A stretch of 58,239 nt of DNA from the IMG/VR virus record IMGVR_UViG_3300014208_000048, positions 1 to 58,239 of that record; one strand, written 5' to 3'. This DNA is from a virus. Its lineage: Duplodnaviria; Caudoviricetes. Below are positions 38,229 through 56,582 of the stretch, in pieces. A program made the translations under genes and the position numbers. The notes under the pieces were generated by a model. The model did no database searches. It was not told the origin of the DNA and saw nothing but the letters and a program-made list of their open reading frames with translations. The first letter of the stretch is position 1. The number at the start of each line of letters is the position of its first letter.

Positions 38229-38603
38229 ATGGAACAAAACGAATTATTCGAAGGCGTTGGGTGGATCGGGGTAGATCTCGATGGCACTCTCGCAGAGATT
38301 GGCGACTGGCAAGGCCTGCAGTTCATCGGAAAGCCGATAAAACTGATGGTTGATAGAGTTAAAGACTGGATATCCCAGGGATACACCGTGAAGATCTTTA
38401 CGGCAAGAGTTTCACATAAGGATCCGAAGCTCAATGAGCTGGCGGAGTGGCATATTAAGCAGTGGTCGAAGAAAAACATCGGCTCAGCTCTTGAAGTTAC
38501 GTGCAAAAAGGATTTCAATATGACGACACTCTACGATGATCGTTGTGTTACCGTCATTCACAACACAGGCCTATTTGCACACGAGATCACGAGTATAAAC
38601 TAA
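38229..38603 (+). CDS. HAD-superfamily phosphatase (PNK phosphatase-like)
   Basis: WIGVDLDGTLA, IFTAR, LYDDR. Confidence 0.85.
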   Translation: MEQNELFEGVGWIGVDLDGTLAEIGDWQGLQFIGKPIKLMVDRVKDWISQGYTVKIFTARVSHKDPKLNELAEWHIKQWSKKNIGSALEVTCKKDFNMTTLYDDRCVTVIHNTGLFAHEITSIN

Positions 38604-39469
38604 TGGGGCCGGTAATAATTACCGACGATCTCAGCGCGAAGAGACGATACACGGTGAAGATTATCGATGAAGACTTGACAAGAAAGCTTTTGAGGCTCTC
38701 CGACGACTACACATTGGGGACAGCCATAGGCAAATACACGGGACAGTTCCTTCGCGACTACAAGTCAAAGGGTTACATTGACATGATACGTGCAGCGCTG
38801 AAGGTGTTCGATGATATCAAGAAGATGCCGGTGAAAGCTATTACAGGGGCCGAGCTAGAATGGCGGCTGAGGATACGCAGCGGGCGAGTGAGCCCACAGA
38901 CAGATCATCGATACCACCTTGCAATATACTACTTCTTTGAGTATCTACGTAGACGTGAGCTCGTCGTGTATAATTATGTGAGGTTCCCGGGTGTCTTCAA
39001 ACCACTTGTGGCACGAGCCCTTGATCCGGAACAACTTGACATTCTCTTCAAAACTCTCCCAGAGGGCAAACTTCGAGATGCGTGTCTCATCGTTTATCAT
39101 ACTGGGATGAAATTGGAAGAGTTAAACAGCATCGTCAGGTATTCATACGCAACAGAGCAGCTCATACTTCCGCATCGCAGAGTGAAGATCTCAAAACTCA
39201 TGGTAGGAAAGGTTGAGCACTGTCCTAGGTTTAGGTTGACAAGGCTTAGAGATGATCTCCGGGCTGCAGTCAAAGACCTGGACTTCGAGGTTTCCTTCTC
39301 TAGGATACGCTTAGCCTTCGTTAGGAGGGCCGTAGAAGAGGGGATACCCAAAGAGCTGATCCGCAGACAGCTTGGATTGTCATACACTTTCAACGTCACG
39401 CAGCTCATCTACAAAGCAGTAGGCAAAAAGACACTTCTTACGAGTAATTACACAGACTACGCTTCATAA
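38603..39469 (+). CDS. Tyrosine recombinase-fold protein with degenerate active site
   Basis: YFFEYL core-binding domain; YHTGMKLEEL (R to K), FSRIRLAF (no H of HxxR), QLGLSY (no H), TQLIY. Confidence 0.75.
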   Translation: MGPVIITDDLSAKRRYTVKIIDEDLTRKLLRLSDDYTLGTAIGKYTGQFLRDYKSKGYIDMIRAALKVFDDIKKMPVKAITGAELEWRLRIRSGRVSPQTDHRYHLAIYYFFEYLRRRELVVYNYVRFPGVFKPLVARALDPEQLDILFKTLPEGKLRDACLIVYHTGMKLEELNSIVRYSYATEQLILPHRRVKISKLMVGKVEHCPRFRLTRLRDDLRAAVKDLDFEVSFSRIRLAFVRRAVEEGIPKELIRRQLGLSYTFNVTQLIYKAVGKKTLLTSNYTDYAS

Positions 39470-39474
39470 ATTTG

Positions 39475-39513
39475 AAAGCAGGGCCTCTTATTTTTTCAAG
39501 GGGTCCTGCTTTT
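39475..39513 (+). terminator. Intrinsic terminator ending the left-hand operons
   Basis: AAAGCAGGGCCTCTT...AAGGGGTCCTGCTTTT. Confidence 0.75.
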
Positions 39514-39940
39514 GAGTATTATCGGTAATTATTTCCGATTAATTTCCTCTCTCTATAATAATCAAACAAATAAGATCCCCCGAATTTGATTCTGACTTCG
39601 TTTTTTTGCCAGGAATTGAATGGCATACCTCCATCGAAAATAATCCAAAAAACTATATCATCAAGAAGTAAAAATCCCGGTTTAGATCTGACGTATTTTT
39701 ATACAGTAGGGAAGCAGCGGACTTTTCCCTCCTGTTCCCCTTTTGCAATATTGGGAATAAACATGGGCTATTTCCTATTAATGACAAAATAGTATGTTGC
39801 TATAATATAACATTATAGCAATGATGCTATGTATACCGTATAGATGCAGCATTACGAAAACTCGTAAGATTGCATAAAATGTATAGTATATATGTTTTAA
39901 TAACGGCTAGGGGAGAACGGAGTAAAAACAATTACGTTCA

Positions 39941-40016
39941 TACCTACAATATTAAGACATATCTCTACCTACAGCATTAAAGATACATTTTTACCTACAG
40001 CATTAAGATACATTTA
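39941..40016 (+). repeat. Three tandem 25-26 bp repeats
   Basis: TACCTACA(AT/GC)ATTAA(A)GA... at 39941, 39966, 39992. Confidence 0.85.
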
Positions 40017-40139
40017 TACGGTCATACTATTAAACACGATCAAGAAAAAACATTCTGGGAACATACCTACGTTCTCTTTTCTTCTCTCTTTCCCCTATAG
40101 GATAACAACCTTTTTTCTTTTGCGGGCTCAATTAATAGC

Positions 40140-40168
40140 TTGACAATGTATAAATAATTGACTATATT
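40140..40168 (+). promoter_or_regulatory. Sigma70-type promoter
   Basis: TTGACA-N17-TATATT. Confidence 0.7.
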
Positions 40169-40209
40169 TATAGTATCAATTAATCACTAAACAAAAGGAA
40201 AGAAAAATC

Positions 40210-40365
40210 ATGAAGTATACATTCAAAGTATTTTATCCCGTCCTTATCTTTGTTTCTCTGTTTATCTTCTCTATGTATCTTATATCTATCTTTGGCGCTG
40301 TAGTTTTTCCTTTTATGATTTTTTTACTGTATTATATGGACTATTTTTTTAGTCTAATTAATTGA
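40210..40365 (+). CDS. 51-aa hydrophobic membrane protein (not in ORF track)
   Basis: AAGGA RBS; MKYTFKVFYPVLIFVSLFIFSMYLISIFGAVVFPFMIFLLYYMDYFFSLIN. Confidence 0.55.
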   Translation: MKYTFKVFYPVLIFVSLFIFSMYLISIFGAVVFPFMIFLLYYMDYFFSLIN

Positions 40366-40473: not shown

Positions 40474-41262
40474 ATGGAATCAAAATATTTCACTTCGGGA
40501 TACGCAGAGCTGGAAAAAAGTATTTCTAAGCTATTCGCTTCTCTCTCTTCTCTCACTGGTAAGAACGATAAAGCACTGGCGGGCTTAGACGCTGAACGTG
40601 ACGCCTTCATTGAAAAGAATGAAGCGAAAAAAACATTGACATTGAAAAACTTTAAAATTTCATCGTCGGAAATTTCCTACTTTATCGGTTCCGCTTTGAA
40701 GGATGCGAGAGAACGGGATAAAACCAAAGATGCTAGCGATTACCGTTTAATGCTGGTAAAGCTGGCAATTTCAGAAGGACAAGCAAAGGAAAAAATCAGA
40801 TTTTTCAACGTATGGCAAGATGAAGTTCTAAATAACGCAAATTTCTTTCGTGAAACAAATATTGATTTTTCGATCATTGAACGATTGGGGAAAGTTAAGG
40901 ACAGTGACCAAAGGAATGCGCTTGTTGATTATGTTTCCGAAAATCCGATCACGGCGGAAACGGCAAGAAAAATAAACCCGGCTATTGACGAATTGAATGA
41001 CAAGGGTATAACGTATACGATCGACGAAATTGTAAGCCTTGCCGGAAATCTTGCGAAAGAGAAACCCGCTCCATCGAAAAAACACACAGACGGAACGGAC
41101 ACCAAAAGGGTCACTGTTGAGAATGCTAAACAATACGAAACATTTTTCCTTTCCTTCTCTGCCGTATACAATGAAATGACGGGAAAGGCACTTGAAGTAA
41201 AAAACTATACCGGTGACGACGTGAAAGCTATCTTGCATTCAATGGAAGTAGTGCCGGCGTAA
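40474..41262 (+). CDS. Helical protein, possibly DNA-binding (DUF3102-like pattern)
   Basis: Own promoter and terminator; YFIGSALKDARE...ISEGQAKEKIRF. Confidence 0.6.
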   Translation: MESKYFTSGYAELEKSISKLFASLSSLTGKNDKALAGLDAERDAFIEKNEAKKTLTLKNFKISSSEISYFIGSALKDARERDKTKDASDYRLMLVKLAISEGQAKEKIRFFNVWQDEVLNNANFFRETNIDFSIIERLGKVKDSDQRNALVDYVSENPITAETARKINPAIDELNDKGITYTIDEIVSLAGNLAKEKPAPSKKHTDGTDTKRVTVENAKQYETFFLSFSAVYNEMTGKALEVKNYTGDDVKAILHSMEVVPA

Positions 41263-41280: not shown

Positions 41281-41314
41281 AAAAAAGAGGAATCTGGCAA
41301 ATTCCTCTTTTTTT
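41281..41314 (+). terminator. Intrinsic terminator
   Basis: AAAAAAGAGGAAT-loop-ATTCCTCTTTTTTT. Confidence 0.85.
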
Positions 41315-41565
41315 GCGCCCTTTCTATATAGCGTATATACTACTGTATTAGTATGTGCGCGGGCTCAATTACTAATTGGCGATTGATTTTTTCAAAATTT
41401 GCCAGAGAATATTCCGAATTCTGGAAAATGAAATCGTAGGCATGTGCCTACAAAACAGTAGTCTGGTCCGCTTGCCTTGTGAGAGACTTGCGGGCCCAAT
41501 TCAAAACTGCGGTCAACCGCATATTCAAAAATGCAAACGTAGGCATGTGCCCACAAGGAGACGTT

Positions 41566-41847
41566 ATGTGTCACCATCTTAGAATAAATCATCTTTGGAA
41601 GCAGTATCAGGCCGGAGTGATTACGCTGGAGCAGCTCCACAGAGGGATTAAGAAGGAAATTAATCTCATGGGATCAAAGACACTCGGCTTAGCGGTTCCG
41701 GACTGGGGCGCTCATCACATCCGCGTATTCCAGAATCGGAGCGACAAAGAGGGGATCCTTCTCTTCTGCCTTAGAGTCATTTACGGCGTCCGCGAATATT
41801 TTACGAGCTCAATCACAAATCGTAGGCATGTGCCTGCAAGGAGTTAA
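41566..41847 (+). CDS. Hypothetical protein (palindrome-led)
   Basis: Palindrome + AGGAG + ATG 41566. Confidence 0.6.
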   Translation: MCHHLRINHLWKQYQAGVITLEQLHRGIKKEINLMGSKTLGLAVPDWGAHHIRVFQNRSDKEGILLFCLRVIYGVREYFTSSITNRRHVPARS

Positions 41848-41848
41848 G

Positions 41849-42145
41849 GTGTTCAACATCGTGAAAATACACGCGGACCTGTCCAGCGAATTAAGAAATG
41901 TCGATAGCCAGTATAAAAATGGATTCATTACGGCGCACGAGCACGTAGTCAAATCATATAACGCTATCGCATTCGTAGCGTTCCGGAATAAACCTGCCGG
42001 ACTTACGGCGGACGTTATGCCTATCGTAGATCGACTGCACGCTGGAGCGGGCGGGGCGCTTCCTACCGATATGGACGATCTGCGGACTCTCGCCGCAGTA
42101 GAGCTGGTGTATCGCGAGTCATACGTTATGGCGATGCAGGAATAA
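41849..42145 (+). CDS. Hypothetical protein (palindrome-led)
   Basis: Palindrome + AGGAG + GTG 41849. Confidence 0.6.
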   Translation: MFNIVKIHADLSSELRNVDSQYKNGFITAHEHVVKSYNAIAFVAFRNKPAGLTADVMPIVDRLHAGAGGALPTDMDDLRTLAAVELVYRESYVMAMQE

Positions 42146-42231
42146 TCGCGGGATAATATTCAAAAATTTGCCATCGAAAATCACGAATTCTTAAAATTAA
42201 ATGTGGGCATGTGCCTACAGGAGTATTGAAA

Positions 42232-42507
42232 ATGGAAGTCTCTCGATGTATAGCTGTATCGCTCGACGACGTATCGGCGGGCCTCGCCATCGTAGGCGAG
42301 TCAATGGACTCTGAAATATCTGGAGCTGTTGGCTCACGAAACATAGATCAGCGGTGGGTAGTAGTGAAGAAGTGTGGCGCGGGCTACACTGTAACCGGAC
42401 GGACCGGACGACAATTCGAGTTCTTCTACGACATGGAATCAAAACTCGCAATCGCCGTGGTGATAGCGGAGTTCCTTGGAATAGTAAAAATTGCGGAGGC
42501 GGTATGA
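42232..42507 (+). CDS. Hypothetical protein (palindrome-led)
   Basis: Palindrome + AGGAG + ATG 42232. Confidence 0.6.
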   Translation: MEVSRCIAVSLDDVSAGLAIVGESMDSEISGAVGSRNIDQRWVVVKKCGAGYTVTGRTGRQFEFFYDMESKLAIAVVIAEFLGIVKIAEAV

Positions 42508-42791
42508 GTGGCGATAATGCAAAGTCATTCTCTTATATGGACAAAATCTCAAAGCGAACATTCGTCAATAGCTTAGATTGGCTCCTACGCAGGCGGCGGA
42601 AGGTAGACATATCAAGCATTACGGTGCGGCGACTCGCCGGCGGCGGGGGGATGCTGTTGGCAGCGTTCGTAGACGGCGCAGTATTTTACGCGGAGTTTCA
42701 GAGTTACTCCGCTATGACCAAATTCATATCGAGGAGGGTGTTCTTCGGTGTAACGATTCTACACCTTCCACACGAGAATCAAATCACTTGA
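42504..42791 (+). CDS. Hypothetical protein, paralog of 47565..47837
   Basis: GGAGG RBS; shared LxWLxRRxRKV...DGxVFxAxFxSY. Confidence 0.7.
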   Translation: MSGDNAKSFSYMDKISKRTFVNSLDWLLRRRRKVDISSITVRRLAGGGGMLLAAFVDGAVFYAEFQSYSAMTKFISRRVFFGVTILHLPHENQIT

Positions 42792-42868
42792 CAACATTCA
42801 AAATCATTGACGTAAATTCACATTTTCCAAAAAACAAATCGTAGGCATGTGCCTACAAGGAGGTTAAA

Positions 42869-43162
42869 ATGAAATGCTATTCACCAATTCCCGACCATAT
42901 GTATCAAGTCTTTATGAGGCGTCCCGGACAAAAACAGTTCGAGCATTGCGAGTATGTTCGATCAAAACAGGAACTCACCACCGTTATCACCGACTACCGG
43001 TCGGCGTATCCGGAGGTTGAATTCAAATTCAAAGAATTCCCGAAGAAGTATCATCCGACGGAACCCGTGACTCTCTCGGAACAGATTATGTCGGTCCGTC
43101 CACTCAGGATGGATGCAGCACAACGCCGGCCTTCAATGTATCATGTTGCTGTAGCTGCATAG
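42869..43162 (+). CDS. Hypothetical protein (palindrome-led)
   Basis: Palindrome + AGGAGG + ATG. Confidence 0.65.
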   Translation: MKCYSPIPDHMYQVFMRRPGQKQFEHCEYVRSKQELTTVITDYRSAYPEVEFKFKEFPKKYHPTEPVTLSEQIMSVRPLRMDAAQRRPSMYHVAVAA

Positions 43163-43241
43163 GTGTATCGCCCGTGGTTATGGTAGCATAATCGCGGGCT
43201 CAAAGCTTCAAAAATTCACAAAAACAAACAGGAGATCTGAA

Positions 43242-43730
43242 ATGTATTTTCCACTTAGCGCTACAGGCATAAGGCGCGCAGTAGACACGTCTGTCGAAAT
43301 AATTAATAAGCTTGGGATCGAAGACAAATTCGACACTATTGTTGTGAGGGGCGCATCCGGAATTCTGATCGCAGGCGCTCTTGCGGTGGCTACCGATAAG
43401 TGCATAGCTATCGTCAGGAAGGCAAATGATTCCACCCACTCCCGGGGCCCGATAACCAGTAACTCTATAATCGGCAAGTTTATTGTCCTCGACGACTTCG
43501 TAGACACGGGGGCGACCATGAGCGCCATATTCAGCGAGTTAGAACAGGTGGGACATTTTCGGGAGGATTGTGTGGCCGTCATCCTTTACTCTGACGAGAG
43601 CGACATATTCGCAAAGCGCCACACGATATACTACGATCCGGACCGCTATGTTCCAATGTCGAAATTTCACGACGCATTTTCATTTAACATTAACCAGCAG
43701 GCACATGCCTACACAATAGAAAGAGATTAA
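43242..43730 (+). CDS. Type I phosphoribosyltransferase-like protein
   Basis: IVVRGASG, AIVRK, PRPP-binding FIVLDDFVDTGATM. Confidence 0.85.
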   Translation: MYFPLSATGIRRAVDTSVEIINKLGIEDKFDTIVVRGASGILIAGALAVATDKCIAIVRKANDSTHSRGPITSNSIIGKFIVLDDFVDTGATMSAIFSELEQVGHFREDCVAVILYSDESDIFAKRHTIYYDPDRYVPMSKFHDAFSFNINQQAHAYTIERD

Positions 43731-43731
43731 C

Positions 43732-43995
43732 ATGAAAGCAAAGACAGGATTCATCGCATCACTCGCGGGCCTCATGCTCGGATATCGAAACTCTCGGTCG
43801 GTAGACACTCAGAAACCACAGCACGAACCACATGCAAACCGGCTCGTCTCGCTGGCGAAACATCTTCAATACAAGAGTAATGCTCGGCGGTCTCGCATCT
43901 TGGACCGGCTCACCAAGAATCGGGCAGCTCGGCGGAAATTCGAACCAATCGAGGTAAATCGCGTGGACTTATTCAAAAGAGTGAAACTTTATTAA
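43732..43995 (+). CDS. Hypothetical basic protein
   Basis: Palindrome 19 nt upstream. Confidence 0.55.
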   Translation: MKAKTGFIASLAGLMLGYRNSRSVDTQKPQHEPHANRLVSLAKHLQYKSNARRSRILDRLTKNRAARRKFEPIEVNRVDLFKRVKLY

Positions 43996-44016
43996 CCAAA
44001 TCCGAGGATTGAAATC

Positions 44017-44250
44017 ATGGCAAAGAGCAAATATTACGTCCCGAGACTAGAGGTCCACCTCGTCACCATTACAGTTATCGCAGAAAGCGTCGATGAGGCA
44101 ATCGAGCTTGTGAGGGCCGGCGAAGGCGAAGAGCAATCTGCCTGCGAGTTTATGAATAACTTCCACGAATACGGCCCAGACGATATTGTCCGGCATGAGA
44201 AGAATGCCTCAATCCTCATTGATGGGGTCACAAAGGGGGAGGGCGTATGA
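44017..44250 (+). CDS. Hypothetical protein
   Basis: GAGG RBS; VIAESVDEAIELV motif. Confidence 0.6.
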   Translation: MAKSKYYVPRLEVHLVTITVIAESVDEAIELVRAGEGEEQSACEFMNNFHEYGPDDIVRHEKNASILIDGVTKGEGV

Positions 44251-44459
44251 GCGGGACGAAGAGCTTCATGACTCAAGTTGAAGACGTGAAAGTATCCGGC
44301 GGAGAACTATTTTTTGGCTGTGGCGTGAGCATAAACGTCTACGTCACCAGCGACGGGCGGTATGACTTATACGTGTTCGACTTGCTGAAAGTTCGGCACG
44401 CTCAGCTTGGAGTCAGAGAGTCGGTTTTAGCTGATACGATCATTGCACTCGCGACATAG
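44247..44459 (+). CDS. Hypothetical protein
   Basis: GGAGG RBS, ATGA overlap. Confidence 0.55.
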   Translation: MSGTKSFMTQVEDVKVSGGELFFGCGVSINVYVTSDGRYDLYVFDLLKVRHAQLGVRESVLADTIIALAT

Positions 44460-44514
44460 CGCGGGTAGCGCCACACACGACGGAGGTAGCCATGAAAAAC
44501 TACTAAGTAGTATT

Positions 44515-44648
44515 GCCCTCAAGTGCCTTGCGGTGCTTGCGGGCGCAAACCCTGTAGCTTCGTATTAGACGAGCCGCGAGTAAACATAGCGAAAGCGAAT
44601 GTGAAGCGGTGGAGCCGGTGTGAGTCCGGCGAATCGTGGGCTACAGGG
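44515..44648 (+). ncRNA. Candidate structured RNA (hairpin plus three-way junction with T-loop-like hairpin)
   Basis: CCCTGTAGC/GCTACAGGG closing stem; GCCGC/GCGGT arm capped by GC-GAAA-GC; GCCGG-TGTGAGT-CCGGC. Confidence 0.5.
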
Positions 44649-44672
44649 ATAATATTAAAAAAAAGGAGTAGT

Positions 44673-44975
44673 ATGCCGGCATACATGTATTCAATAACTA
44701 TAAACAGAAGCCCAAAAAGTGTTTTCTATCACAGGTCGGTAAAGCTGGAGGACGGCACTCTCAGTCTTAGGGTGTTACGTGAAATCGTCACCGAAGACGA
44801 AGTTTTCTCGGTAGCAGAACGGGATGGCGACTCTCAGTTCGAGGTAGTCTATACGCTGGAAATCGACGGCTGGAGGATGGAAACCGAGGAAGAGGTGTCT
44901 TATCGCGTCGTCATGGAGGAGAGATACATGGAGGAATACCGAAAGAGGCATCCGTTGCGGTTCAAGCGAGATTAA
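44673..44975 (+). CDS. Hypothetical protein
   Basis: AAGGAG RBS before ATG 44673. Confidence 0.6.
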   Translation: MPAYMYSITINRSPKSVFYHRSVKLEDGTLSLRVLREIVTEDEVFSVAERDGDSQFEVVYTLEIDGWRMETEEEVSYRVVMEERYMEEYRKRHPLRFKRD

Positions 44976-45037
44976 AAACTGCGGTCGGCCGCATATTCAA
45001 AAATAAATAGTAGGCATGTGCCTACAAGGAGATCGAA

Positions 45038-45445
45038 ATGAGCGTCGAAGAAAGATTTTTTAATCACACAATGAACAATGGTAACGATAAAGATCTTCTC
45101 GCCTCTATTCTTAAAGGGGAGTTGATGGGGATCGTTGACGAGGAGTGTGGCGGGATTATTGCCTATACGCTTCCATCTGGATCGAAAATTGCCGGCATAC
45201 TACAGGGAATCGTCGAGCTGACCAGCCTCCTTAGAGAGAAGCGATCGGATATTTCCGATGCGCTACATAGACTCCTTGAGAACGGTGAGCTGGACACCAG
45301 CCTCATAGAACATCGGTTCATCTCTGCAAAAATTCCGGACGAGGGGATCACAGTCTACTACGACACGCTGACGACGCTACTGTCTTACGATACTCCGAGC
45401 GGTCAAGTGTTTGAGTGCGAAAATCACGAATACGCCGATAATTAG
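45038..45445 (+). CDS. Hypothetical protein (palindrome-led)
   Basis: Palindrome + AGGAG + ATG. Confidence 0.65.
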   Translation: MSVEERFFNHTMNNGNDKDLLASILKGELMGIVDEECGGIIAYTLPSGSKIAGILQGIVELTSLLREKRSDISDALHRLLENGELDTSLIEHRFISAKIPDEGITVYYDTLTTLLSYDTPSGQVFECENHEYADN

Positions 45446-45498
45446 CCGGAGGACGCAAAATGTCTTCCTTATTAAGAACGTAAACACTGGAGACTGTT

Positions 45499-45687
45499 AT
45501 GTATGTAATCAAATGTGTTGCAAATACTTATAGCCAATACGTCGGATGCTATGTTGCTAAAGCCGTCAGCGGCGGTAGTTACACTAGAAAAATATCTATG
45601 GCTCGAAAATATTCATCAATAGATGAGGCGGAGGGACATAAATGCGAAAATGAAATAGTTGTGTCATTAGAGTCTGAGGTAAACTAG
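45499..45687 (+). CDS. Hypothetical protein
   Basis: GGAG RBS. Confidence 0.55.
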   Translation: MYVIKCVANTYSQYVGCYVAKAVSGGSYTRKISMARKYSSIDEAEGHKCENEIVVSLESEVN

Positions 45688-45717
45688 GAATATTAACACA
45701 AAATAAGGAGGCGTAAA

Positions 45718-46020
45718 GTGAAGTATCCAATAGGTGTCGCCAAAAAATCATTCCACAGTCAGGTGAATCTCGACAACGGGATTACAAACAGCAAGCTCGG
45801 GGACTTCGATTACACGATGGAGCTCTTCCGAAACTTCGACGGATCCATGTTTATCGAATGGGATATTCCAAGGCTGGATCGGACCACCGATATCGGGCTC
45901 ACGTTTAGAGAGCAAAATATCCTCGATGGATACGACGGAGTATTTGAGCTACCATCTCAGGCAATAGAACTGTTGCGCGAAAACGGAATAATAGTATCCG
46001 AAGAATTCATCGAAGAATAA
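45718..46020 (+). CDS. Hypothetical phage protein
   Basis: AGGAGG RBS; IEWDI...IGL...YDGVFELP. Confidence 0.65.
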   Translation: MKYPIGVAKKSFHSQVNLDNGITNSKLGDFDYTMELFRNFDGSMFIEWDIPRLDRTTDIGLTFREQNILDGYDGVFELPSQAIELLRENGIIVSEEFIEE

Positions 46021-46052
46021 ATCGTAGGAACATGCCTACAGGAGAATAGCGA

Positions 46053-46301
46053 ATGAGTAAAAACGACATTATAAATCTAACGGGAACACTTTCTCTCGTC
46101 GAGCGCCGTGACGGGTTTTGGCTGTATGACAAAACGCGCGGTATGAATATAAGCATGAAAGCGAAGACTCAACAGGATGCCTTTGTAGAAGGGCTCGGAT
46201 ACTACCAGAGGCGGCTTACTGAAGTAGAGGCCGCTCACCGCGAACTCTCCGATAAGGTTGAGGCTTTCGTAGGACAATTCAAAGATGAGGACGACATCTA
46301 A
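46053..46301 (+). CDS. Hypothetical protein (palindrome-led)
   Basis: Palindrome + AGGAG + ATG. Confidence 0.65.
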   Translation: MSKNDIINLTGTLSLVERRDGFWLYDKTRGMNISMKAKTQQDAFVEGLGYYQRRLTEVEAAHRELSDKVEAFVGQFKDEDDI

Positions 46302-46342
46302 GGACTGGTATCACAAAAGAATAGAAGGAGATCAAAATAGAA

Positions 46343-46531
46343 ATGAGAACGTATGTCGGATTTTGCGAAACATCGGCTGGGTTTATGGTAAAGTCTTCAC
46401 CTTCCGAACTGTGGAAACGATTGACGCCGGGACAAAAACTTTTGTGGACGCTATACAAACAAGGCAAGATTCAGGCGAGTCAAACGGTGGTCGATTTACT
46501 TAACACCAAAGGAGGTCAAGATGCACATTAA
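46343..46531 (+). CDS. Hypothetical protein
   Basis: AAGGAG RBS. Confidence 0.45.
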   Translation: MRTYVGFCETSAGFMVKSSPSELWKRLTPGQKLLWTLYKQGKIQASQTVVDLLNTKGGQDAH

Positions 46532-46712
46532 TAAATGGATCTACGGATGGAAGTTCTACGTGAACTACGGGGCCGGGTGGGAGTATGAAACCTTCGAGGA
46601 GACCCGAAAGAAGATGATCGAGAATCGAAGGCAATATCGTGAAAACTGCCGCTTTCCACTCAAAATTTCAAGAGGCAGAGAGCTAAATCCGGAATACGAA
46701 AACCAAAATTAA
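46521..46712 (+). CDS. Hypothetical phage protein
   Basis: AGGAGG RBS; NYGAGWEY...YREN. Confidence 0.6.
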   Translation: MHINKWIYGWKFYVNYGAGWEYETFEETRKKMIENRRQYRENCRFPLKISRGRELNPEYENQN

Positions 46713-46717
46713 GGAAA

Positions 46718-47837: not shown

Positions 47838-47849
47838 TAGGAGATCACT

Positions 47850-48134
47850 ATGAATATCGGGAAAGAAATCAATATCAACGGCGCGACATGCGTAGCCGTA
47901 GAATGCCTCCGCTTGGATATCGACAAATGCCTGAAAAAATTGGCAGGGAAGTATCCGCATGTATACCATCTCCGGCATGGCGATGCTAACTGGAACGAGC
48001 CGGCGACGGTAGAGAATTTTGCTGCAGTAAATTTTTTCGGAATACTCGCGTCGAAAAGTCCAATTAAAATGACGCACGGCGACTATACTCCACTAACCAA
48101 AAAAGAAAGGCAGATGATATGTTCTTCAATTTAG
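47850..48134 (+). CDS. LPD28-like (large polyvalent protein domain) protein
   Basis: YHLRHGDANWNEPATVE...VNFFGIL....PI. Confidence 0.65.
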   Translation: MNIGKEININGATCVAVECLRLDIDKCLKKLAGKYPHVYHLRHGDANWNEPATVENFAAVNFFGILASKSPIKMTHGDYTPLTKKERQMICSSI

Positions 48135-48466
48135 GAAATTTTATGCGTCGAATTAGCTTGCGACCGGGCAGACACTCCTCGGAAGCTCCGCCAACAAACC
48201 CGGTCGAGCAGCTCACGCCATCCGAGAAGAGGCGTCTCGACGAGCTTGGAAGTCTCTTCCATTACTCGCTTTGCGATGGTAGCGGGCGACCGATCAACGT
48301 TCGCATCGATGCCGGCAAACACGTGTGGTCGATACTCGAAAAGGAGCGCAAAAGGGTGCACCTCGGAGTGCCGATTGACCCGCAGAAACTCGATATCGCA
48401 CTGCGAAACGCGCAGGATTTTATCGAATACCAACACTTACTTTTAGGGGGAAAGCATGAACCGTGA
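48119..48466 (+). CDS. Hypothetical protein (start uncertain)
   Basis: ORF filling the operon gap. Confidence 0.5.
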   Translation: MFFNLGNFMRRISLRPGRHSSEAPPTNPVEQLTPSEKRRLDELGSLFHYSLCDGSGRPINVRIDAGKHVWSILEKERKRVHLGVPIDPQKLDIALRNAQDFIEYQHLLLGGKHEP

Positions 48467-48638
48467 ATTGCGAAAAAAACTCAATGGAACGTTTGAGTCG
48501 AAACGACTACAGCGTCGGCACGAACGAAAGCAAATGCTGTCTGACCGCAAGAGGAATTGGATCAACAGGTTTAAGACTCCTCCGCAGCGAGAATCAACAT
48601 TCTTGGAATTCATCTTTGGATTTCTATTCAAAAACTAA
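48456..48638 (+). CDS. Hypothetical basic protein
   Basis: GGGGG RBS; ends just before a palindrome. Confidence 0.45.
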   Translation: MNRELRKKLNGTFESKRLQRRHERKQMLSDRKRNWINRFKTPPQRESTFLEFIFGFLFKN

Positions 48639-48668
48639 CAGTAGGCACATGCCTACAGAAAGAAATAT

Positions 48669-49031
48669 ATGATTAAGTGCCATAAAGACACTCAAGTAAT
48701 CTGGAATCACGCGGACTTTCCGGGACTCAAAGCCGAACAAGCGACAATTCTTCGCATTGCGGCGAAGGGCGAACTTAATAAGCGCCTCGTTTTCGAGCGC
48801 CTCAAGCATCTCGCGGAGAACATCGCCACAAAAGTGATGGAATCAAACCCGGAGTTTGATCGATCGGACGTTATCGACTCAATCTGCCCTACGTGGGTAA
48901 AGGAATTGTTTGCGATCGAGTTCTTGCAGGACATGGGGCTGCACAACGATGAGTATCTCGCTCTTGCGAAAAATTATGTTCGCCGGACGCAGGAGAATGA
49001 TGATTTGGAGCAAATGTCGGAGGCCGCGTAG
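48669..49031 (+). CDS. Hypothetical protein (palindrome-led)
   Basis: GTAGGCACATGCCTAC 12 nt upstream. Confidence 0.65.
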   Translation: MIKCHKDTQVIWNHADFPGLKAEQATILRIAAKGELNKRLVFERLKHLAENIATKVMESNPEFDRSDVIDSICPTWVKELFAIEFLQDMGLHNDEYLALAKNYVRRTQENDDLEQMSEAA

Positions 49032-49032
49032 T

Positions 49033-49431
49033 ATGAGCAGGGACCTCAAGGAATTTGCGAAGGGAAGTAAGTCGCTACAGTTTTTGTTGCTCGGGACGAC
49101 CGAGGCGGAAAAAAAACTATTCTATGCTGGAGCAGAGCTGCAAAAGCAGCTAATGACGCAAGGCAAGGTATACGACACAGAGGTGAACAGATTCACCAAG
49201 ACTGAGGGCATTCGTGGAACGCATCTCGAATTTAATGAGGCGGCGATTCTAAGGCGGATCCTAACAGACAGAATCGAATACTTGAAAATGGTTGTTTCTC
49301 TGAATACGGAAACGAAAGCTATTACTGAATTAAGAGCCACGGTAAATATTTACGAAAAAGTCCTAGGAGATAAATATGGCGAAGTTCAAAGTGAGGCTAG
49401 AGATCGAGACTTCACGCAAAAACCTAGTTGA
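49033..49431 (+). CDS. Hypothetical protein
   Basis: GGAGG RBS before ATG 49033. Confidence 0.6.
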   Translation: MSRDLKEFAKGSKSLQFLLLGTTEAEKKLFYAGAELQKQLMTQGKVYDTEVNRFTKTEGIRGTHLEFNEAAILRRILTDRIEYLKMVVSLNTETKAITELRATVNIYEKVLGDKYGEVQSEARDRDFTQKPS

Positions 49432-49585
49432 CAAATACGGCGAAGGCGAGGTGAAGCAGACCGAAAGTCTCAATAGCGGAGAGCTAAGCATCGGAGATCT
49501 GATGGATTTTATTCACGCTGAACTCGGATGGGCCATCCCGTCGTTCGATGGGATGGAAATTAAATCGTGTAAAGAAATTAAATAA
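49376..49585 (+). CDS. Hypothetical protein
   Basis: AGGAG RBS. Confidence 0.55.
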   Translation: MAKFKVRLEIETSRKNLVDKYGEGEVKQTESLNSGELSIGDLMDFIHAELGWAIPSFDGMEIKSCKEIK

Positions 49586-49631
49586 TATTTTTTTGCGAAA
49601 TGCCATATAACACAAACGCTAAGGAGATAAT

Positions 49632-49988
49632 GTGAAGACAAAAGTTAAGATAACGTCGGTAGACGGAATAAAAATGATCCATCTCGCAGGAGAACGGGGC
49701 GGAATCGGCTCCATCAGCGCTATGAACGTTGACGACGTGAAGGCAATATTTGGACGTGTCTTTCCGCCGTCAGAGGGCTTAGGCCTATTGATCGTGTCTA
49801 AGCGGAGAATGGCTGGATCGATTGAATTTGTAGTGATGCAAAGTCCGAAAAAAGGCATGTATGGATACACCGATAACAAAGACATCATTCTTCCATGCCA
49901 AAAGTATTCTAAAAAAATATTCGGCAAAACTCCCGAGATTTACGATACGTATCACGTGAGATTCGAGAAAATGGAGAAGAAAAAATGA
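49632..49988 (+). CDS. Hypothetical protein, tandem paralog 1 of 3
   Basis: MKTKV...LIVSKRRMAG...PCQKYSKKIFG..P...YHVRFEK. Confidence 0.75.
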   Translation: MKTKVKITSVDGIKMIHLAGERGGIGSISAMNVDDVKAIFGRVFPPSEGLGLLIVSKRRMAGSIEFVVMQSPKKGMYGYTDNKDIILPCQKYSKKIFGKTPEIYDTYHVRFEKMEKKK

Positions 49989-50362
49989 AAACAAAAGTAA
50001 GATTTACGAGCGGCTATCTATTTGGTAGGGTGACGTTAGACCGGAAATACCCTAGACTCGACAGTCATAATTCGTTTCCGATTAACGTTTTCAATAAGAT
50101 CATGGGCGAGTCCTGTGGTGTTGGGGACTCGGGCATCTTAATTGTGTCAAGGAAACAGATGGCTGGCGCTACAATAATACGGATTGTGAGCCCCGGCGAT
50201 GTGCAGAACTTCGGCCGAGCGGACGCCTTGCTGCCGACCGGCAAGAATGTCTACAGCGAGTGGATACCGTGTCCGAAATACCAAAAAATTCTCTTCGGAT
50301 TCGCTCCGCGCATAGGAACAGTTTTGTATGTGAAATTTGAGAAGACGAAGGAGAAAAAATGA
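49985..50362 (+). CDS. Hypothetical protein, tandem paralog 2 of 3
   Basis: MKTKV...LIVSRKQMAG...PCPKYQKILFG..P...LYVKFEK. Confidence 0.75.
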   Translation: MKTKVRFTSGYLFGRVTLDRKYPRLDSHNSFPINVFNKIMGESCGVGDSGILIVSRKQMAGATIIRIVSPGDVQNFGRADALLPTGKNVYSEWIPCPKYQKILFGFAPRIGTVLYVKFEKTKEKK

Positions 50363-50733
50363 AAACAAAAATCAAGATTGTAGCGATGGACGAAATACAC
50401 TGTATGGGGGCCGCATTAGCCCGGTGTCGCGGACCGTTTAACGTCTGGAACACAATGCCGATTGAAGACGTTGATGTGCTATTCCCGAGGTGCTGGCCGT
50501 TCACAATCGGGGAAACGGCGATCGTTACCGTGTCCAAGCGAAAGCTGGTCGACAGTGAACGCATAAATGTCCTTGTTGCGCCGCTAAAAAATTGCCGCGG
50601 ATACGCAGGAAGGAGTGATGGCGCAGTAGCCAGCATACCGTGCTCAAGATATTCAAGAGGGATTTTCGAAGGGGCCCCAAAGAGGGGGTCAACATACTAC
50701 ATCAAATGCAAAGTCTTGAAGGGTAAGAAATGA
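50359..50733 (+). CDS. Hypothetical protein, tandem paralog 3 of 3
   Basis: MKTKI...VTVSKRKL...PCSRYSRGIF...P...YYIKCK. Confidence 0.75.
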   Translation: MKTKIKIVAMDEIHCMGAALARCRGPFNVWNTMPIEDVDVLFPRCWPFTIGETAIVTVSKRKLVDSERINVLVAPLKNCRGYAGRSDGAVASIPCSRYSRGIFEGAPKRGSTYYIKCKVLKGKK

Positions 50734-51104
50734 GCAACGTAGAGAAAATTGTAAAAATCAACTTGCTCGGAGCGGCGGAGCGCTGGCATCGGTATCACCC
50801 GAAAGTGTTCCCTAGCGCCTTAATCACGGATGGCATAGTTTTTCTGCTGAACGAGGCGAGACTTACGGCGGTGATCGACATTATCCTTAGCTCTCAGTCA
50901 CACCCGGAGTTTAAGGGTAAATGGAAACAGCAATGGATTTTCCAGAAAAATGAAGATTCATCATGGTCAATCCTGTGGCAAAACGGCATGACTCAAGCCG
51001 TTATACACACTGGAACATATACGGACATTCCTCTCGACAGAGTAGAGATGATGCTCTTGCGAGGGGCGAACGAACACGTGGTAATGCTTCCCAACGAATT
51101 ATAG
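50730..51104 (+). CDS. DUF6876-like protein, divergent copy
   Basis: FP..LITDG...DII.S.Q...QQW...YTDIPL...VMLPNEL. Confidence 0.7.
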   Translation: MSNVEKIVKINLLGAAERWHRYHPKVFPSALITDGIVFLLNEARLTAVIDIILSSQSHPEFKGKWKQQWIFQKNEDSSWSILWQNGMTQAVIHTGTYTDIPLDRVEMMLLRGANEHVVMLPNEL

Positions 51105-51112
51105 GAGGAGTA

Positions 51113-51493
51113 ATGAACGCCGCCGAACTAAAGAATAGTCTCGCGCAGTTTTCTGGATCGGAAAGATTCACAAAATATTCCCAGGCGCTGTTTCCAAAAA
51201 CAGTTATCACTGAAGGTGTCCTGTATCTCGCGGAGAAAGCTGGCTGCTATTGGCTCTTAGACTTAATTTCAAGCTGGCAGTCGGACTCAAGGGTCTCGGC
51301 GGAATCTTTTCAGGTCTGGAAACTCAGCAAGGATGACGACGGAGAATGGTCCGTGGTGTTTGGAGACGGGAATAATGATAAGGACTTCGTGATTCAAAAT
51401 GGCGAATTCACGGATTTCCCACTCGGATCCATGAAGCTGTTCGCTGTCAACGATGGAGAAACGCTAACGATTCTTTTACCACAAGAATATTAG
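51113..51493 (+). CDS. DUF6876-like protein
   Basis: LAQFSGSE...TEGVLYLAEKAGCYWLLDLI...FQVWKL...DGN...FTDFPL...LLPQEY. Confidence 0.8.
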   Translation: MNAAELKNSLAQFSGSERFTKYSQALFPKTVITEGVLYLAEKAGCYWLLDLISSWQSDSRVSAESFQVWKLSKDDDGEWSVVFGDGNNDKDFVIQNGEFTDFPLGSMKLFAVNDGETLTILLPQEY

Positions 51494-51502
51494 GAGATCA
51501 AT

Positions 51503-52144
51503 ATGGAAGCACTGCATACAGAAGTATACAGAGGTAGCACGATCAATATCTATCCGGACGATGATCCGATGAACCCGGTTGAGAACTGGGACATGCTCGG
51601 AACATTCACGTGTTTTCACAGAAGGTATGATTTGTCGTGCAAGAAAAACAAGATAAAGTCGCCGAATGAATTAAGGGAGACTATAAATAAACGAAACGTG
51701 ATCTCCCTTCCGCTGTATCTTTACGATCACTCTGGGATCACTATCTCGACGACACCATTCTCGTGCCGATGGGATAGCGGGCAACTCGGTAACATCTGGT
51801 GCACTATTGGCGACGCTCGGAAGGAGTTCGGACGAAAGTTAAGTTCGCAGGAGCTGGAGACGAATGTGTATGAAGTATTCGTGAATGAAGTGAAGAGCTT
51901 CGACGACTATTTGCGCGGAAATTGCTATGGGTTCAAAGTCGAAGACGTGTGCACGGACGAAGGTGAACCGAGTGAAGTGGATAGCTGCTGGGGCTACCTT
52001 GGCGACATGGAGTATTGCCTTGACGAGGCCCGAGGGGTAGCGAACCATAGGATTATGCGACGAATTAAATCGATACGAACAGAACGAGCTGTAATGCGGG
52101 CCACTGGAACGTTCGGATACATTCCGCAGGCGGCGATTATATAA
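51503..52144 (+). CDS. Conserved-looking mobile-element hypothetical protein
   Basis: CFHRRYDL, LPLYLYDHSGITIST, WDSGQLG, DSCWGY. Confidence 0.75.
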   Translation: MEALHTEVYRGSTINIYPDDDPMNPVENWDMLGTFTCFHRRYDLSCKKNKIKSPNELRETINKRNVISLPLYLYDHSGITISTTPFSCRWDSGQLGNIWCTIGDARKEFGRKLSSQELETNVYEVFVNEVKSFDDYLRGNCYGFKVEDVCTDEGEPSEVDSCWGYLGDMEYCLDEARGVANHRIMRRIKSIRTERAVMRATGTFGYIPQAAII

Positions 52145-52168
52145 CCGGCAATCCTTATAGGTGACAGT

Positions 52169-52450
52169 ATGAGCTTGAGATTAAGCGGAACTGCTATTAA
52201 GAAGGAACTCGCTGAGTTCAAAGAATTAAAGACGAAGCTCCGAGATAGACATCTTAACCGGCAAGATCAACTGAGATATGGTGAGCTTGCCCTACTATTC
52301 GCCGTCGTTGTGGCGACAAACAATATTTGCGGTCAGCCGCACATTCGTAGGAATATACCTACAGGAGATCAAAATGAAACACGTATTTCCAACATTCGAC
52401 GAAGTTGCACACATATTCAACACCCAGCGACTAGAGCCCGCGCGTTGTAG
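52169..52450 (+). CDS. Hypothetical protein
   Basis: AGGTG RBS; 3' end overlaps palindrome and next gene. Confidence 0.4.
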   Translation: MSLRLSGTAIKKELAEFKELKTKLRDRHLNRQDQLRYGELALLFAVVVATNNICGQPHIRRNIPTGDQNETRISNIRRSCTHIQHPATRARAL

Positions 52451-54696: not shown

Positions 54697-55055
54697 AAAA
54701 TGTCATCGTATTATTCTTGAAATGGACCGCGTTCACGGCAATCGTCGTCCCGTGCGTGTCGATAGTAATATACCTATCAGTTATCGGCCTAGCCTCAATT
54801 CAGAGCGAGGACGAACACGGCGCGATCGGTTACTACACAATGCACGACGAGACGATCGGCGGCAGGAAATATATTATATTCGTCGGCTCTAATGGCGGAG
54901 TATATGCCATGGAAAAACGCGGAAACGTTTCACGAAAACCTAAACCAAAAACACAGGAGACGCATGAAAGCTTCGAAAACAAATCCGATGCTGCCGGAGT
55001 TCTGCTTCGGGCTGCTACCGTCGGACAACAGCGTGATAGCAATCAAACACGGTGA
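54693..55055 (+). CDS. Hypothetical membrane protein
   Basis: N-terminal TM segment, GTGA overlap. Confidence 0.5.
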   Translation: MKNVIVLFLKWTAFTAIVVPCVSIVIYLSVIGLASIQSEDEHGAIGYYTMHDETIGGRKYIIFVGSNGGVYAMEKRGNVSRKPKPKTQETHESFENKSDAAGVLLRAATVGQQRDSNQTR

Positions 55056-55323
55056 GCTCGGATACATCAGAAAAAATAGGCAGGAAATCGAGATGGCGTT
55101 TAAGATTGCCGGAGTCGCCGACAGCCTCGTTAATGACGACCCGAGTGCCGCCGTGGATGCACTCAATCTGGCCATTGGAGTTACAAGGCAAATGCGATCA
55201 GCCATGGAAATTGGCAGCATGTTCGGCTGGGATATACCAGGCGCGAACCCATCTACATACAAAGAAGATGGGTGTCCGATTCCAAGGGATGAGGTCACTT
55301 TTTCCGAGGCTTTTCGATGCTAG
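54964..55323 (+). CDS. Conserved-looking mobile-element hypothetical protein
   Basis: AGGAG RBS; LPEFCF...IKHGELGY...AMEIGSMFGWDIPGANP. Confidence 0.7.
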   Translation: MKASKTNPMLPEFCFGLLPSDNSVIAIKHGELGYIRKNRQEIEMAFKIAGVADSLVNDDPSAAVDALNLAIGVTRQMRSAMEIGSMFGWDIPGANPSTYKEDGCPIPRDEVTFSEAFRC

Positions 55324-55383
55324 GGTTTGACTTGACAAAATGGCGCTTATTGGCTTAATTGATATCATCAAAAAAGGAGCAAT

Positions 55384-55668
55384 ATGACAGCCAATGTGTA
55401 TTTTAATTCAGACGAATTTTTGGCCTCAATTAGGGACGTCAATAATCCGACGTATAAAGACATACTAGAGCAAGCGTATCTGGAGCCCGGAGATGGAGCC
55501 GATAAGGCTTCGGTCCTACGATCATCGATCTACTCGGTTGACGGAGAGAATGCGATAGTGGGCCCAGAGAAAAATGTCGATATCGATTTCCTGATAACCA
55601 AGGAAGGCGGACTAGTGTTTCGCCGGAAGGGGGAGCAGGGCTTCAAAATGTTCCTGGAGTTAAAATGA
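55384..55668 (+). CDS. Hypothetical protein
   Basis: AAGGAG RBS; TTGACA at 55332 upstream. Confidence 0.6.
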   Translation: MTANVYFNSDEFLASIRDVNNPTYKDILEQAYLEPGDGADKASVLRSSIYSVDGENAIVGPEKNVDIDFLITKEGGLVFRRKGEQGFKMFLELK

Positions 55669-56582
55669 ACGAATTAATTGTGCGCGAGGAGTATAGCGCC
55701 ACCATTGTAGAGAGAGATGTTCTCTCAATGTTTCTCGGCCAACTCACGCCAAACACTCGCAAGGCATACGAGAAAGACATACTGCAGTTCTGTGTATTGA
55801 TAGGCTGTCCGAAGGAGAATCTTCACGGGCTCCCCGCCGGCGATCTATTTGAATATGGAACCAGGTTCGCAAGGGATGACAGGTATTCGACTGCCTCCAG
55901 GGCGAGGCGGTTGTCGTCTGTGCGAAGCTATCTGCAGTTCCTATGCAGCATCGGGATCCTCTACAGGAACCCGCTTGAGAACGTCTCCACCGCAAAGGTG
56001 AAGAACAAGAGAAAGGATATTCTATCAGACGAAGATGTGGAAAAAATATTCAAATCTATTAATACCAGCACAAGGGCTGGTGCGAGAGATTTTCTCGCTC
56101 TTCTCCTTCTGGTTGAACAAGGACTGCGAAGAAACGAAATCCTCTCCATCAAATATGGAGATATTACAAAAAATGTGGAGGGACGAACAGTCGCAAAGGT
56201 TACACGCAAAGGAGATAGAGACGATGAAAGACCGCTCTCTCGCAGATCGATCGAAGCGATCGAACGTTGTAAAGAGCTTGACGGCCTAACGGTCGTCAGC
56301 CCAGGGACTCACATCATTAGAAATAAATTCGGTAACAGAATGTCGGGCCAAAGGCTCTTCGAGATTATTAAGGAATACGCCAGAAAATCCGGAATAGAAA
56401 AAGAGATTTCCCCGCATTCGTTCAGGCACTACGCCATCACGGACGCCGCAAAGGTAGAGGATAGTGTCCCAAAATTAATGCAGTTTAGCGGTCATCAGAG
56501 CGCCTCAACACTTGGGCGATACATTCACTTTAAGAATACTGAGGCCATAACGTCAATCCAGGAAAAGAGAGGTATACATTGA
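55665..56582 (+). CDS. XerC/D-like tyrosine recombinase with intact catalytic set
   Basis: NTRKAY..DI, ARRLSSVRSYL, GLRRNEI, RKGD, SPHSFRH, SGHQSASTLGRY. Confidence 0.93.
   Translation: MNELIVREEYSATIVERDVLSMFLGQLTPNTRKAYEKDILQFCVLIGCPKENLHGLPAGDLFEYGTRFARDDRYSTASRARRLSSVRSYLQFLCSIGILYRNPLENVSTAKVKNKRKDILSDEDVEKIFKSINTSTRAGARDFLALLLLVEQGLRRNEILSIKYGDITKNVEGRTVAKVTRKGDRDDERPLSRRSIEAIERCKELDGLTVVSPGTHIIRNKFGNRMSGQRLFEIIKEYARKSGIEKEISPHSFRHYAITDAAKVEDSVPKLMQFSGHQSASTLGRYIHFKNTEAITSIQEKRGIH

Follow-up and report, generated by a model that had tools for sequence, protein, structure and literature searches.

The tyrosine recombinase (YR) fold has been found in phage proteins that no longer recombine DNA. 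In the prophage SPbeta, the protein MrpR (YopR) has the YR fold but has lost recombinase function, and it has been described as the master repressor, binding a repeated element termed SPBRE and giving ten peaks in the prophage by chromatin affinity purification with sequencing (ChAP-seq; PMC10516654); the Lys and Tyr of the active site are kept in MrpR (Table 3, PMC10516654). SroF, the phi3T counterpart of MrpR, has been reported to act as a monomeric clamp on a 26-bp A-tract-rich box (bioRxiv 10.1101/2025.11.27.690993). Dead recombinase-fold phage repressors are so far known experimentally from this SPbeta-like group only (MrpR/SroF). Phages with three YR genes are also on record, namely the Tyroviruses of Bacillus, Psychrobacillus phage Perkons and Vibrio pVv01, for which integration, plasmid or dimer-resolution roles have been proposed (PMC9703825). 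The present analysis concerns a 58,239-base stretch of viral DNA (Duplodnaviria; Caudoviricetes; IMG/VR record IMGVR_UViG_3300014208_000048), the whole of which is termed the window below. The window is one complete prophage inserted in a tRNA-Lys gene and, judged by sequence, it holds three genes of YR fold in three different states (aa, amino acids; AF2, AlphaFold2):

179..1222, minus strand: integrase, 347 aa, with an N-terminal extension (PF00589 at 8.3e-12, phrog_1 at 1.7e-34)
38603..39469, plus strand: catalytically dead YR-fold protein, 288 aa, with core-binding and CAT-like domains (from residues, profile and AF2 model)
55665..56582, plus strand: intact Xer/Cre-type tyrosine recombinase, 305 aa, without an arm-binding domain (PF00589 at 1.1e-23, PF02899 at 1.9e-9)

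The second of these genes is the main subject here. Its product, referred to as the 38603 protein, is most likely a DNA-binding factor, and its nearest functional precedent is MrpR/SroF, which it would resemble in action without belonging to their family. The prophage as a whole is read, with moderate confidence, as combining an attL-side integrase, a dead DNA-binding protein that has repeats as its targets, and an intact recombinase that would act on a single site and not at the palindromes described below.

The degenerate recombinase gene and its family

An earlier note on this DNA had described 38603-39469 as a degenerate copy that has the recombinase fold pattern but lacks the first catalytic Arg, the His of HxxR and the His of LGH, and this description is borne out. 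The Arg-I position is occupied by K170 (within HTGMKLEEL, residues 166-174), HxxR reads SRIR (233-236), with S233 in place of His and R236 at Arg-II, and the His/Trp-III position is L259 (LGL, 257-259); the Lys of the beta-hairpin is deleted, appearing as a 5-residue gap in the profile comparison. From the catalytic set R-K-H-R-H/W-Y, only R236 and Y270 remain. When the family of this protein was compared with Xer-like recombinases using hhalign (97.3%, E 2e-11, aa 35-205), K170 was found opposite the catalytic Arg. Global profile alignment of the C-terminal half is unreliable, and the HxxR, H/W and Tyr positions given here are those indicated by motif order and the helices of the model.

The 38603 protein has no match in Pfam or NCBIfam, and the PHROG family phrog_1 ('integrase') matches aa 44-174 only (1.1e-8). 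An AF2 model from the single sequence was unusable, with a predicted local distance difference test score (pLDDT) of 39.1, and a model based on a 10-sequence alignment (pLDDT 84.7) was used instead. In a Foldseek search with this model the best matches listed were all YRs (XerA 5hxy at 1e-6, lambda Int, Tn1549 Int and Cre), whilst VIA-align gave Z 14.6 with Tn1549 Int (root-mean-square deviation (rmsd) 4.5 over 235 residues) and Z 14.2 with the HP1 Int catalytic domain (rmsd 2.3 over 132 residues), and the ESM Atlas gave a TM of about 0.7 to integrase clusters. These comparisons and that by hhalign agree on the two-domain YR fold, consisting of a helical core-binding domain and an alpha/beta catalytic domain, so that the structure prediction and recombinase alignment proposed in the earlier note have found the fold with its catalytic residues gone. 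The protein is basic, with an isoelectric point of 9.8 and 53 Lys and Arg against 34 Asp and Glu.

Loss of the active site extends to the whole of the family. An exhaustive HMMER search of 1.84 billion representatives returned nine relatives (E 1.8e-24 to 2.5e-6, 25-34% identity), all of them metagenomic and either unnamed or 'hypothetical', and no active recombinase fell within E 0.001 of the 38603 protein in that search. A word-based search retrieved the protein itself only, and a repeat search with the family alignment gave no further members; no usable loci of the family were found with the protein in viral contigs, with the family alignment in viral, metagenome or genome contigs, or with two single relatives, one of them compared with viral and metagenome contigs and the other with viral contigs. 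One relative is encoded on a contig of 59 kb, and others on contigs of 11-26 kb. The family was gathered with the dead protein as query and consists by construction of the sequences most like it. Residues at the catalytic positions, counted in a 10-row alignment that includes the window protein, are as follows:

Arg-I: K K S G P L D A S S (Arg in 0/10, Lys in 2/10)
His of HxxR: no His (0/10)
Arg-II: variable (Arg in 3/10)
His/Trp-III: neither His nor Trp (0/10)
Nucleophile Tyr: variable (Tyr in 1/10, the window's own)

The acidic residue of RxxE is retained in all ten rows, three columns are invariant and 20 nearly invariant (including the motif LPxGELRDACLxxYHTG), and a C-terminal aromatic tail, N/P-F/Y-x-D-Y/F, is conserved. 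PF00589 was detected in 0/10 members at E up to 1, and PF22022 (core-binding domain) in 4/10. Proteins that are still recognisable at 25-34% identity, with a confident fold and an active site that is missing throughout, argue for a conserved non-enzyme and not a decaying integrase. The alignment thus describes a small, unnamed family of conserved non-enzymes with the YR fold, in which the catalytic residues were lost long ago. The earlier note had named mostly intact homologues as the sign of recent decay, and the opposite was found, the site being intact in none of the nine.

That 38603-39469 is a functionless leftover of a former integrase is accordingly very improbable. The lack of a Pfam or NCBIfam match, the adjoining low-GC moron region and the great rarity of the family would all suit a relic, but the 288-codon frame is open and translationally coupled, its ATG overlapping the stop codon of the upstream gene as TAATG. 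The nine relatives, moreover, keep length, fold and motifs, yet none has the catalytic residues, and a relic would not stay conserved at such divergence; the AF2 model, too, is a confident one.

Repeated elements and the role of the dead protein

The dead gene is the last of a long plus-strand operon and is followed by two families of repeats, one tandem and one palindromic:

39476..39514, plus strand: terminator-like hairpin and T run closing the operon of the dead gene (read from the sequence; the terminator scan did not list it)
39933..40019, plus strand: about three tandem 25-26-bp units (TACCTACAGCATTAAGA...), each with an ACCTACA half-motif (repeat search)
40210..40365: hydrophobic peptide gene, 51 aa, in a moron-like island
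40474..41262: gene for a 262-aa protein without a family match, in the same island
41281..41313: strong terminator closing the island
41436..52362, plus strand: array of 11 copies of an element of about 40 nt, consisting of an A-rich tract, GTAGGCAYRTGCCTAC, AGGAG, 5-8 nt and a start codon (motif and repeat scans)
57976..57991, no strand assigned: isolated palindrome copy GTAGGCACATACCTAC beyond the final gene in the 55384-57966 operon, reading as a hairpin and T run on the minus strand

The tandem repeats are found directly 3' of the dead gene's terminator and 5' of two near-consensus sigma-70 promoters at 40140 and 40362 (TTGACA-17-TATATT, 11/12 matches each), which precede a small moron closed by its own terminator. 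They are candidate binding sites. The moron-like island as a whole (39500-41320) has a GC content of about 39%.

The palindrome GTAGG-N6-CCTAC occurs in the window in 8 exact copies, against 0.03 expected. When up to one mismatch is allowed there are 14 copies, 10 of which are within the array, and a repeat search adds a degenerate copy at 47539; the array copies start at 41436, 41539, 41822, 42203, 42841, 43697, 45010, 46024, 47539, 48641 and 52347. The core is a 7-2-7 palindrome, GTAGGCA-YR-TGCCTAC (Y and R here being nucleotide codes), with an A-rich tract upstream and a central dinucleotide that flips among copies (CATGTG, CACATG). AAGGAG or AGGAG follows at offset 0 in 8 of the 11 array copies and GAAAG within 6 nt in two more, one copy having neither, and in all 10 array copies with at most one mismatch a start codon lies within 60 nt and opens an open reading frame (ORF) of at least 40 codons. 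The core is predicted to form a 6-bp stem with a tetraloop on both strands, and seven copies read as a hairpin and T run on the minus strand; in the four single-mismatch variants, pairing is kept as a wobble in two and broken in two. The exact palindrome was also found in 15 viral contigs, with one copy each and no second array there. The sequence CCTACA is common to the tandem repeats and the palindrome elements, being present 15 times on the plus strand (13 of these between 39943 and 52358) and 3 times in the opposite orientation, and through it the dead protein may be linked to both sets of repeats.

Several further features touch on the array. A second palindrome, TGCGG-N4-CCGCA, is found at 41508-41521, 44980-44993 and 52328-52341, in each case 5-16 bp upstream of a main palindrome, so that some elements are bipartite. 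An exact copy of the main palindrome at 1950-1965 lies inside the HTH_17 coding sequence, far from the array, and may be either chance or a regulatory link. The 365-aa ORF at 52278-53375 most likely starts at ATG 52374 (333 aa), which a palindrome and AGGAG immediately precede. Within the accessory block, one gene encodes a protein with an LPD28 domain and two neighbouring genes encode DUF6876 proteins (47850-48134, 50730-51493). Both kinds of domain typically occur in the polyvalent proteins that phages and conjugative elements encode, and their presence hints at an early, host-takeover or anti-defence block.

The 38603 protein keeps the two-domain fold that would clamp DNA, together with the C-terminal tail, and would not be able to cut it. 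We infer that it acts as a sequence-specific DNA-binding regulator or architectural factor, MrpR/SroF-like in action and independently arisen, the primary targets of which would be the roughly three tandem repeats at 39933-40019 ahead of the two near-consensus promoters. The A-tract and palindrome elements before the accessory genes, from 41.4 to 52.4 kb, would be further possible targets. The earlier note's suggestion of a repurposed DNA-binding regulator gains indirect support from the nine homologues, none with an intact site, and from the MrpR/SroF precedent; the directionality factor that it offered in the same breath is less likely, as a gene of excisionase type, HTH_17, is present in the prophage already (1824-2038; PF12728, 1.1e-6). 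A number of observations weigh against a regulator of this kind acting at these sites. A CI-type repressor (1200-1625; HTH_3/HTH_26) is already present in the prophage, so that a master-repressor role in the style of SPbeta is not needed, and the dead gene ends a late or DNA-metabolism operon, outside the lysogeny module. The symmetric 7-2-7 core of the palindrome has the form usual for sites of helix-turn-helix dimers and would be a short site for a YR-fold clamp, whilst the strict register of the palindromes with ribosome-binding sites (8/11 abut AGGAG) and their hairpin potential would be equally compatible with an RNA-level role. The model is also closer in structure to active integrases than to SroF/MrpR, and function can thus not be transferred from the latter by homology.

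Other explanations have been considered for both the protein and the repeats. The 38603 protein could be a partner in recombination, that is a non-catalytic architectural or regulatory subunit, directionality factor or accessory factor for either recombinase, joining it on DNA much as inactive protomers do within YR tetramers, though this seems unlikely. In structures of Cre and lambda Int the C-terminal segment of the YR docks onto the neighbouring protomer, and the conserved aromatic tail of the dead family would suit such a contact; two potential partners are available in the same prophage, and one of them, the att-adjacent integrase, has Lys at Arg-II, so helpers might matter. Distances of 17 kb and 37 kb, however, separate the dead gene from the two partners, the HTH_17 gene already offers an excisionase-type factor, and pairwise sequence comparison of the protein with both partners showed no similarity. 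As for the palindromes, a role in the control of gene expression (as operators, in RNA processing or stabilisation, or in antisense termination) appears to fit better than one in recombination, because they stand in a fixed register with ribosome-binding sites; a recombination-site role is argued against by the dozen sites in direct order, which would let an active enzyme delete genes, and by the flipping central dinucleotide. An RNA-level element unrelated to either recombinase, made up of an A/U-rich cleavage site and a 5' protective hairpin, or else a set of minus-strand terminators, is a serious contender, with a probability only a little short of even. The position of the AAGGAG/AGGAG and GAAAG motifs, the start codon that follows each of the ten better copies, the predicted stem and tetraloop and the seven minus-strand hairpins with T runs all speak for it, but the hairpin is short, two of the four single-mismatch variants break its pairing, and the perfect 7-2-7 symmetry in DNA is what a dimeric DNA-binding protein would read.

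An integron-like system, in which the intact recombinase would use the palindromes to shuffle or excise small genes as cassettes, is far less credible. The repeats are highly non-random (8 copies against 0.03), they lie at gene boundaries in one orientation and a YR gene is present at the downstream end. The conserved part of attC sites is their structure, over tens of bp or more. The palindromes, by contrast, are near-identical 16-bp cores which abut ribosome-binding sites at offset 0 and have flipping central dinucleotides, and the intact enzyme reaches 39.2 bits on TIGR02249 against a cut-off of 265; integron integrase identity was rejected for it on this score and on the nature of the repeats. 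No palindrome-palindrome joint was seen in two DNA runs, which is weak evidence as these consist of contigs only. A low-depth 'joint' from 40652 to 49968 (side 27) had neither end at a listed palindrome copy and was taken as an artefact. Action of the intact recombinase at GTAGG-N6-CCTAC, as the earlier note had envisaged, is hence disfavoured given the 16-bp cores, the 8 of 11 that abut an AGGAG-type ribosome-binding site and the deletions that their direct order would allow. Its placing of the two recombinases at the two ends of the palindrome array holds roughly, in that 1967 bp separate the end of the dead gene from the first array copy and the intact gene lies between the copies at 52347 and 57976.

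Returning to the DNA-binding reading, its boldest form is put forward tentatively, as something that would probably fail: the 38603 family would be a new, independently evolved class of regulator that reads the element of about 30 bp formed by the A-tract and GTAGGCAYRTGCCTAC, plus the tandem half-site repeats, and so switches the 11-kb accessory array. If the family does consist of regulators reading the palindrome elements, conversion of a recombinase to a repressor would be a recurrent phage route and not a peculiarity of SPbeta, and one protein would turn an array of about a dozen accessory genes on or off. The annotation 'integrase' would then mislead for such dead genes. Should the link to the repeats fail, the finding is that of an unnamed pseudo-enzyme family and an ordinary extra recombinase.

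The two other recombinases and the prophage

The features that bear on the intact recombinase, the att-adjacent integrase and the limits of the prophage are as follows:

55332..55360, plus strand: sigma-70-like promoter TTGACA-17 nt-TTAATT (TTGACA at 55332-55337), followed by GGAG and ATG 55384
55384..57966, plus strand: operon of six translationally coupled genes with 4-nt overlaps, the recombinase being the second
50..123, plus strand: tRNA-Lys(CTT) (tRNA prediction)
78..123, plus strand: attL core, a 46-bp exact repeat equal to the 3' half of tRNA-Lys(CTT) (repeat match)
58117..58162, plus strand: attR core, the second copy of the 46-bp repeat (repeat match)
1200..1625, minus strand: CI-type repressor (HTH_3/HTH_26), adjoining the attL-side integrase 179..1222
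1824..2038, plus strand: excisionase/MerR-type HTH_17 gene, first of the rightward early operon (PF12728 1.1e-6)

The complete R-K-H-R-H-Y set that the earlier note saw in 55665-56582, and the TTGACA upstream of its operon, are both present. R155, E158, K182, H251, R254, H277 and Y286 are invariant in a 14-sequence alignment of this recombinase, which also has a SAM-like N-terminal domain and matches XerD 1a0p at 4.5e-12. Its closest relatives are three unnamed metagenomic proteins with 41-43% identity, one of which is on a 60.6-kb contig. It remains below the NCBIfam equivalog cut-offs for XerD (125.6/329.6 bits), XerC (107/335), XerA (106/220) and XerS (47.9/267). A search for the protein in viral contigs found nothing, and a 3-sequence alignment of its relatives, run against genome contigs, found 14 distant Xer-like loci only, with 22-41% identity over the best segment. 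The operon encodes, in order, a 94-aa protein of no assigned function, the recombinase, a 138-aa protein with a weak zinc-ribbon match, a 77-aa HNH-like protein and two further proteins of 97 and 168 aa without assigned function, and no palindrome is found ahead of it. A search of the ESM Atlas with the coupled 94-aa protein gave nothing usable, and PADLOC found no defence-system match among 15 proteins around the 38603 and 55665 genes.

This recombinase, expressed from its own promoter near attR, would most likely have a single simple site as its substrate, and not the palindromes, and could for instance resolve multimers of the circle once excised or during replication; multimer resolution of circular phage DNA is a plausible and the simplest role for an enzyme of Cre/Xer type. 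It counts against such a role that no site with arms of 11-13 bp (at most one mismatch) and a 6-8-bp spacer was found near 55.3-58.1 kb, where the search returned terminators and a few intragenic sites only, although imperfect sites would be missed by it. An invertase role was rejected, there being no inverted repeats that bound an invertible segment. The main alternative to multimer resolution is a second integration function, in which the enzyme would serve an alternative att site or would have belonged to a once-separate element that is now fused, and this has a small but real probability. In its favour, the enzyme has the only fully canonical active site of the prophage, its gene is 1.5 kb from attR and transcribed toward it, and the region from 41 to 58 kb forms a distinct block of small accessory genes, with DUF6876 twice and LPD28. 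Against this, the 46-bp att repeat has no third, internal copy in the window, the block is not bounded by any other long direct repeat, the enzyme has no arm-binding domain, and the 29-bp repeat present on either side of the att core abuts the 179-1222 gene at its end, which suits that enzyme instead.

The 29-bp repeat in question is an exact direct repeat with tandem ACTGTCT, found at 179-207 and 58030-58058, on both sides of the att core at a distance of 55-59 bp; its left copy overlaps the last codons of the integrase 179-1222. The two copies are probably the arm-type integrase sites of attP. The active-site residues of the integrase, taken from an 11-sequence alignment, are R201, K226, H284, K287, H311 and Y321, the Arg-II position being Lys (HSLK) where the other 10/10 aligned sequences have Arg. 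A literature search for a natural Lys at Arg-II in recombinases gave nothing usable. Because the 29-bp repeats resemble arm-type sites, 179-1222 is still taken as the integrase, and as an arm-type enzyme next to attL it most likely carries out both integration and excision. A search for this integrase in viral contigs found nothing, and a further search gave three weak phage matches. The presence of this third YR gene beside attL agrees with the earlier note, which had called the other two recombinases extra.

All genes other than this integrase and the CI-type repressor are transcribed rightward. The HTH_17 gene is likely a Cro/Xis candidate, and the rightward replication genes encode helicases, DnaD-like and DnaB-like proteins and a resolvase; the terminase, capsid and tail genes reach about 34 kb and are followed by DNA-metabolism genes from 34 to 39.5 kb, by the low-GC stretch from 39.5 to 41.4 kb and then by about 17 kb of small genes, mostly without assigned function. 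An inverted repeat at 9132-9164, at the start of the DnaD-like gene, has perfect arms of 11 bp (12/13 when extended) and a 7-bp spacer, and is a possible replication-origin or protein-binding site. The capsid is only a distant relation of those of recorded phages: the major capsid protein is at most 35% identical to that of any of them, megablast of 38000-58239 found no match, and tblastn among 50,697 phage records found none either. Phage DNA was found in two groundwater metagenome runs only, both as contigs, and no RNA run that carries it is listed. One of the two may be the source of the window; the other, from another study and another year, contains short contigs that are 100% identical to the phage (38300-58239) at a depth of 2-4x, which places the phage, or its lysogen, in more than one sample.

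Comparison with known recombinase systems

Each of the three YR-fold proteins can be set beside a described group. The integrase 179-1222 is like the heterobivalent integrases of lambda type (lambda Int, Tn1549 Int) in its position by a tRNA att site, its N-terminal extension and the arm-like 29-bp repeats, and differs from them in that its Arg-II is Lys (HSLK, K287). The 55665 enzyme is like the simple YRs of the Xer/Cre group (XerD 1A0P, XerA 4A8E/5HXY, XerH and Cre) in its domains, its full R-K-H-R-H-Y set and its lack of an arm-binding domain; it differs from Xer in being phage-borne and in scoring 125.6 against 329.6 bits on the XerD equivalog, and a dif- or lox-like site was not found beside its gene. 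As in the three-YR phages, one phage genome carries three separate YR genes; those phages, as they are described in PMC9703825, have genomes of 160-170 kb and three enzymes that all have Xer motifs, whereas the present prophage is 58 kb in length and one of its three proteins is dead. The locus is a compact test bed, bringing together an arm-type integrase that has an unusual Lys as its Arg-II residue, a paralog-like dead protein, an intact simple recombinase and, as candidate targets, two families of repeats.

The likeness of the 38603 protein to MrpR/SroF (PDB 8A0A, 8BJ6, 9RD5) is that of a phage-encoded, two-domain YR fold in which most catalytic residues are replaced, and, as in the SPbeta-like group, the prophage has a repeated intergenic element that is a candidate target for the protein. 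The differences are considerable. VIA-align of the 38603 model gave Z 11.4 with SroF (9rd5), 10.7 with YopR (8bj6) and 10.1 with MrpR (8a0a), at 10-13% identity, and these structures ranked 22nd to 36th, below more than 20 entries that are active recombinases or recombinase domains; a PDB sequence search with the protein gave no match to MrpR/SroF. The 38603 family is also without the hairpin Lys, and the Tyr is missing in 9/10 members, and this prophage has a CI-type repressor in addition. Membership of the MrpR/SroF family was rejected for the 38603 protein, the nearest relatives of which, by sequence or structure, are not MrpR/SroF. Active integrases (Z 14-15) resemble its fold more than SroF/MrpR do (Z 10-11), so that catalysis was probably lost independently. 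The prophage, found in groundwater and distant from SPbeta, would then provide a second, sequence-unrelated family in which the active site has been lost even more fully than in MrpR/SroF, which would suggest that the conversion of phage recombinases into repressors is recurrent.

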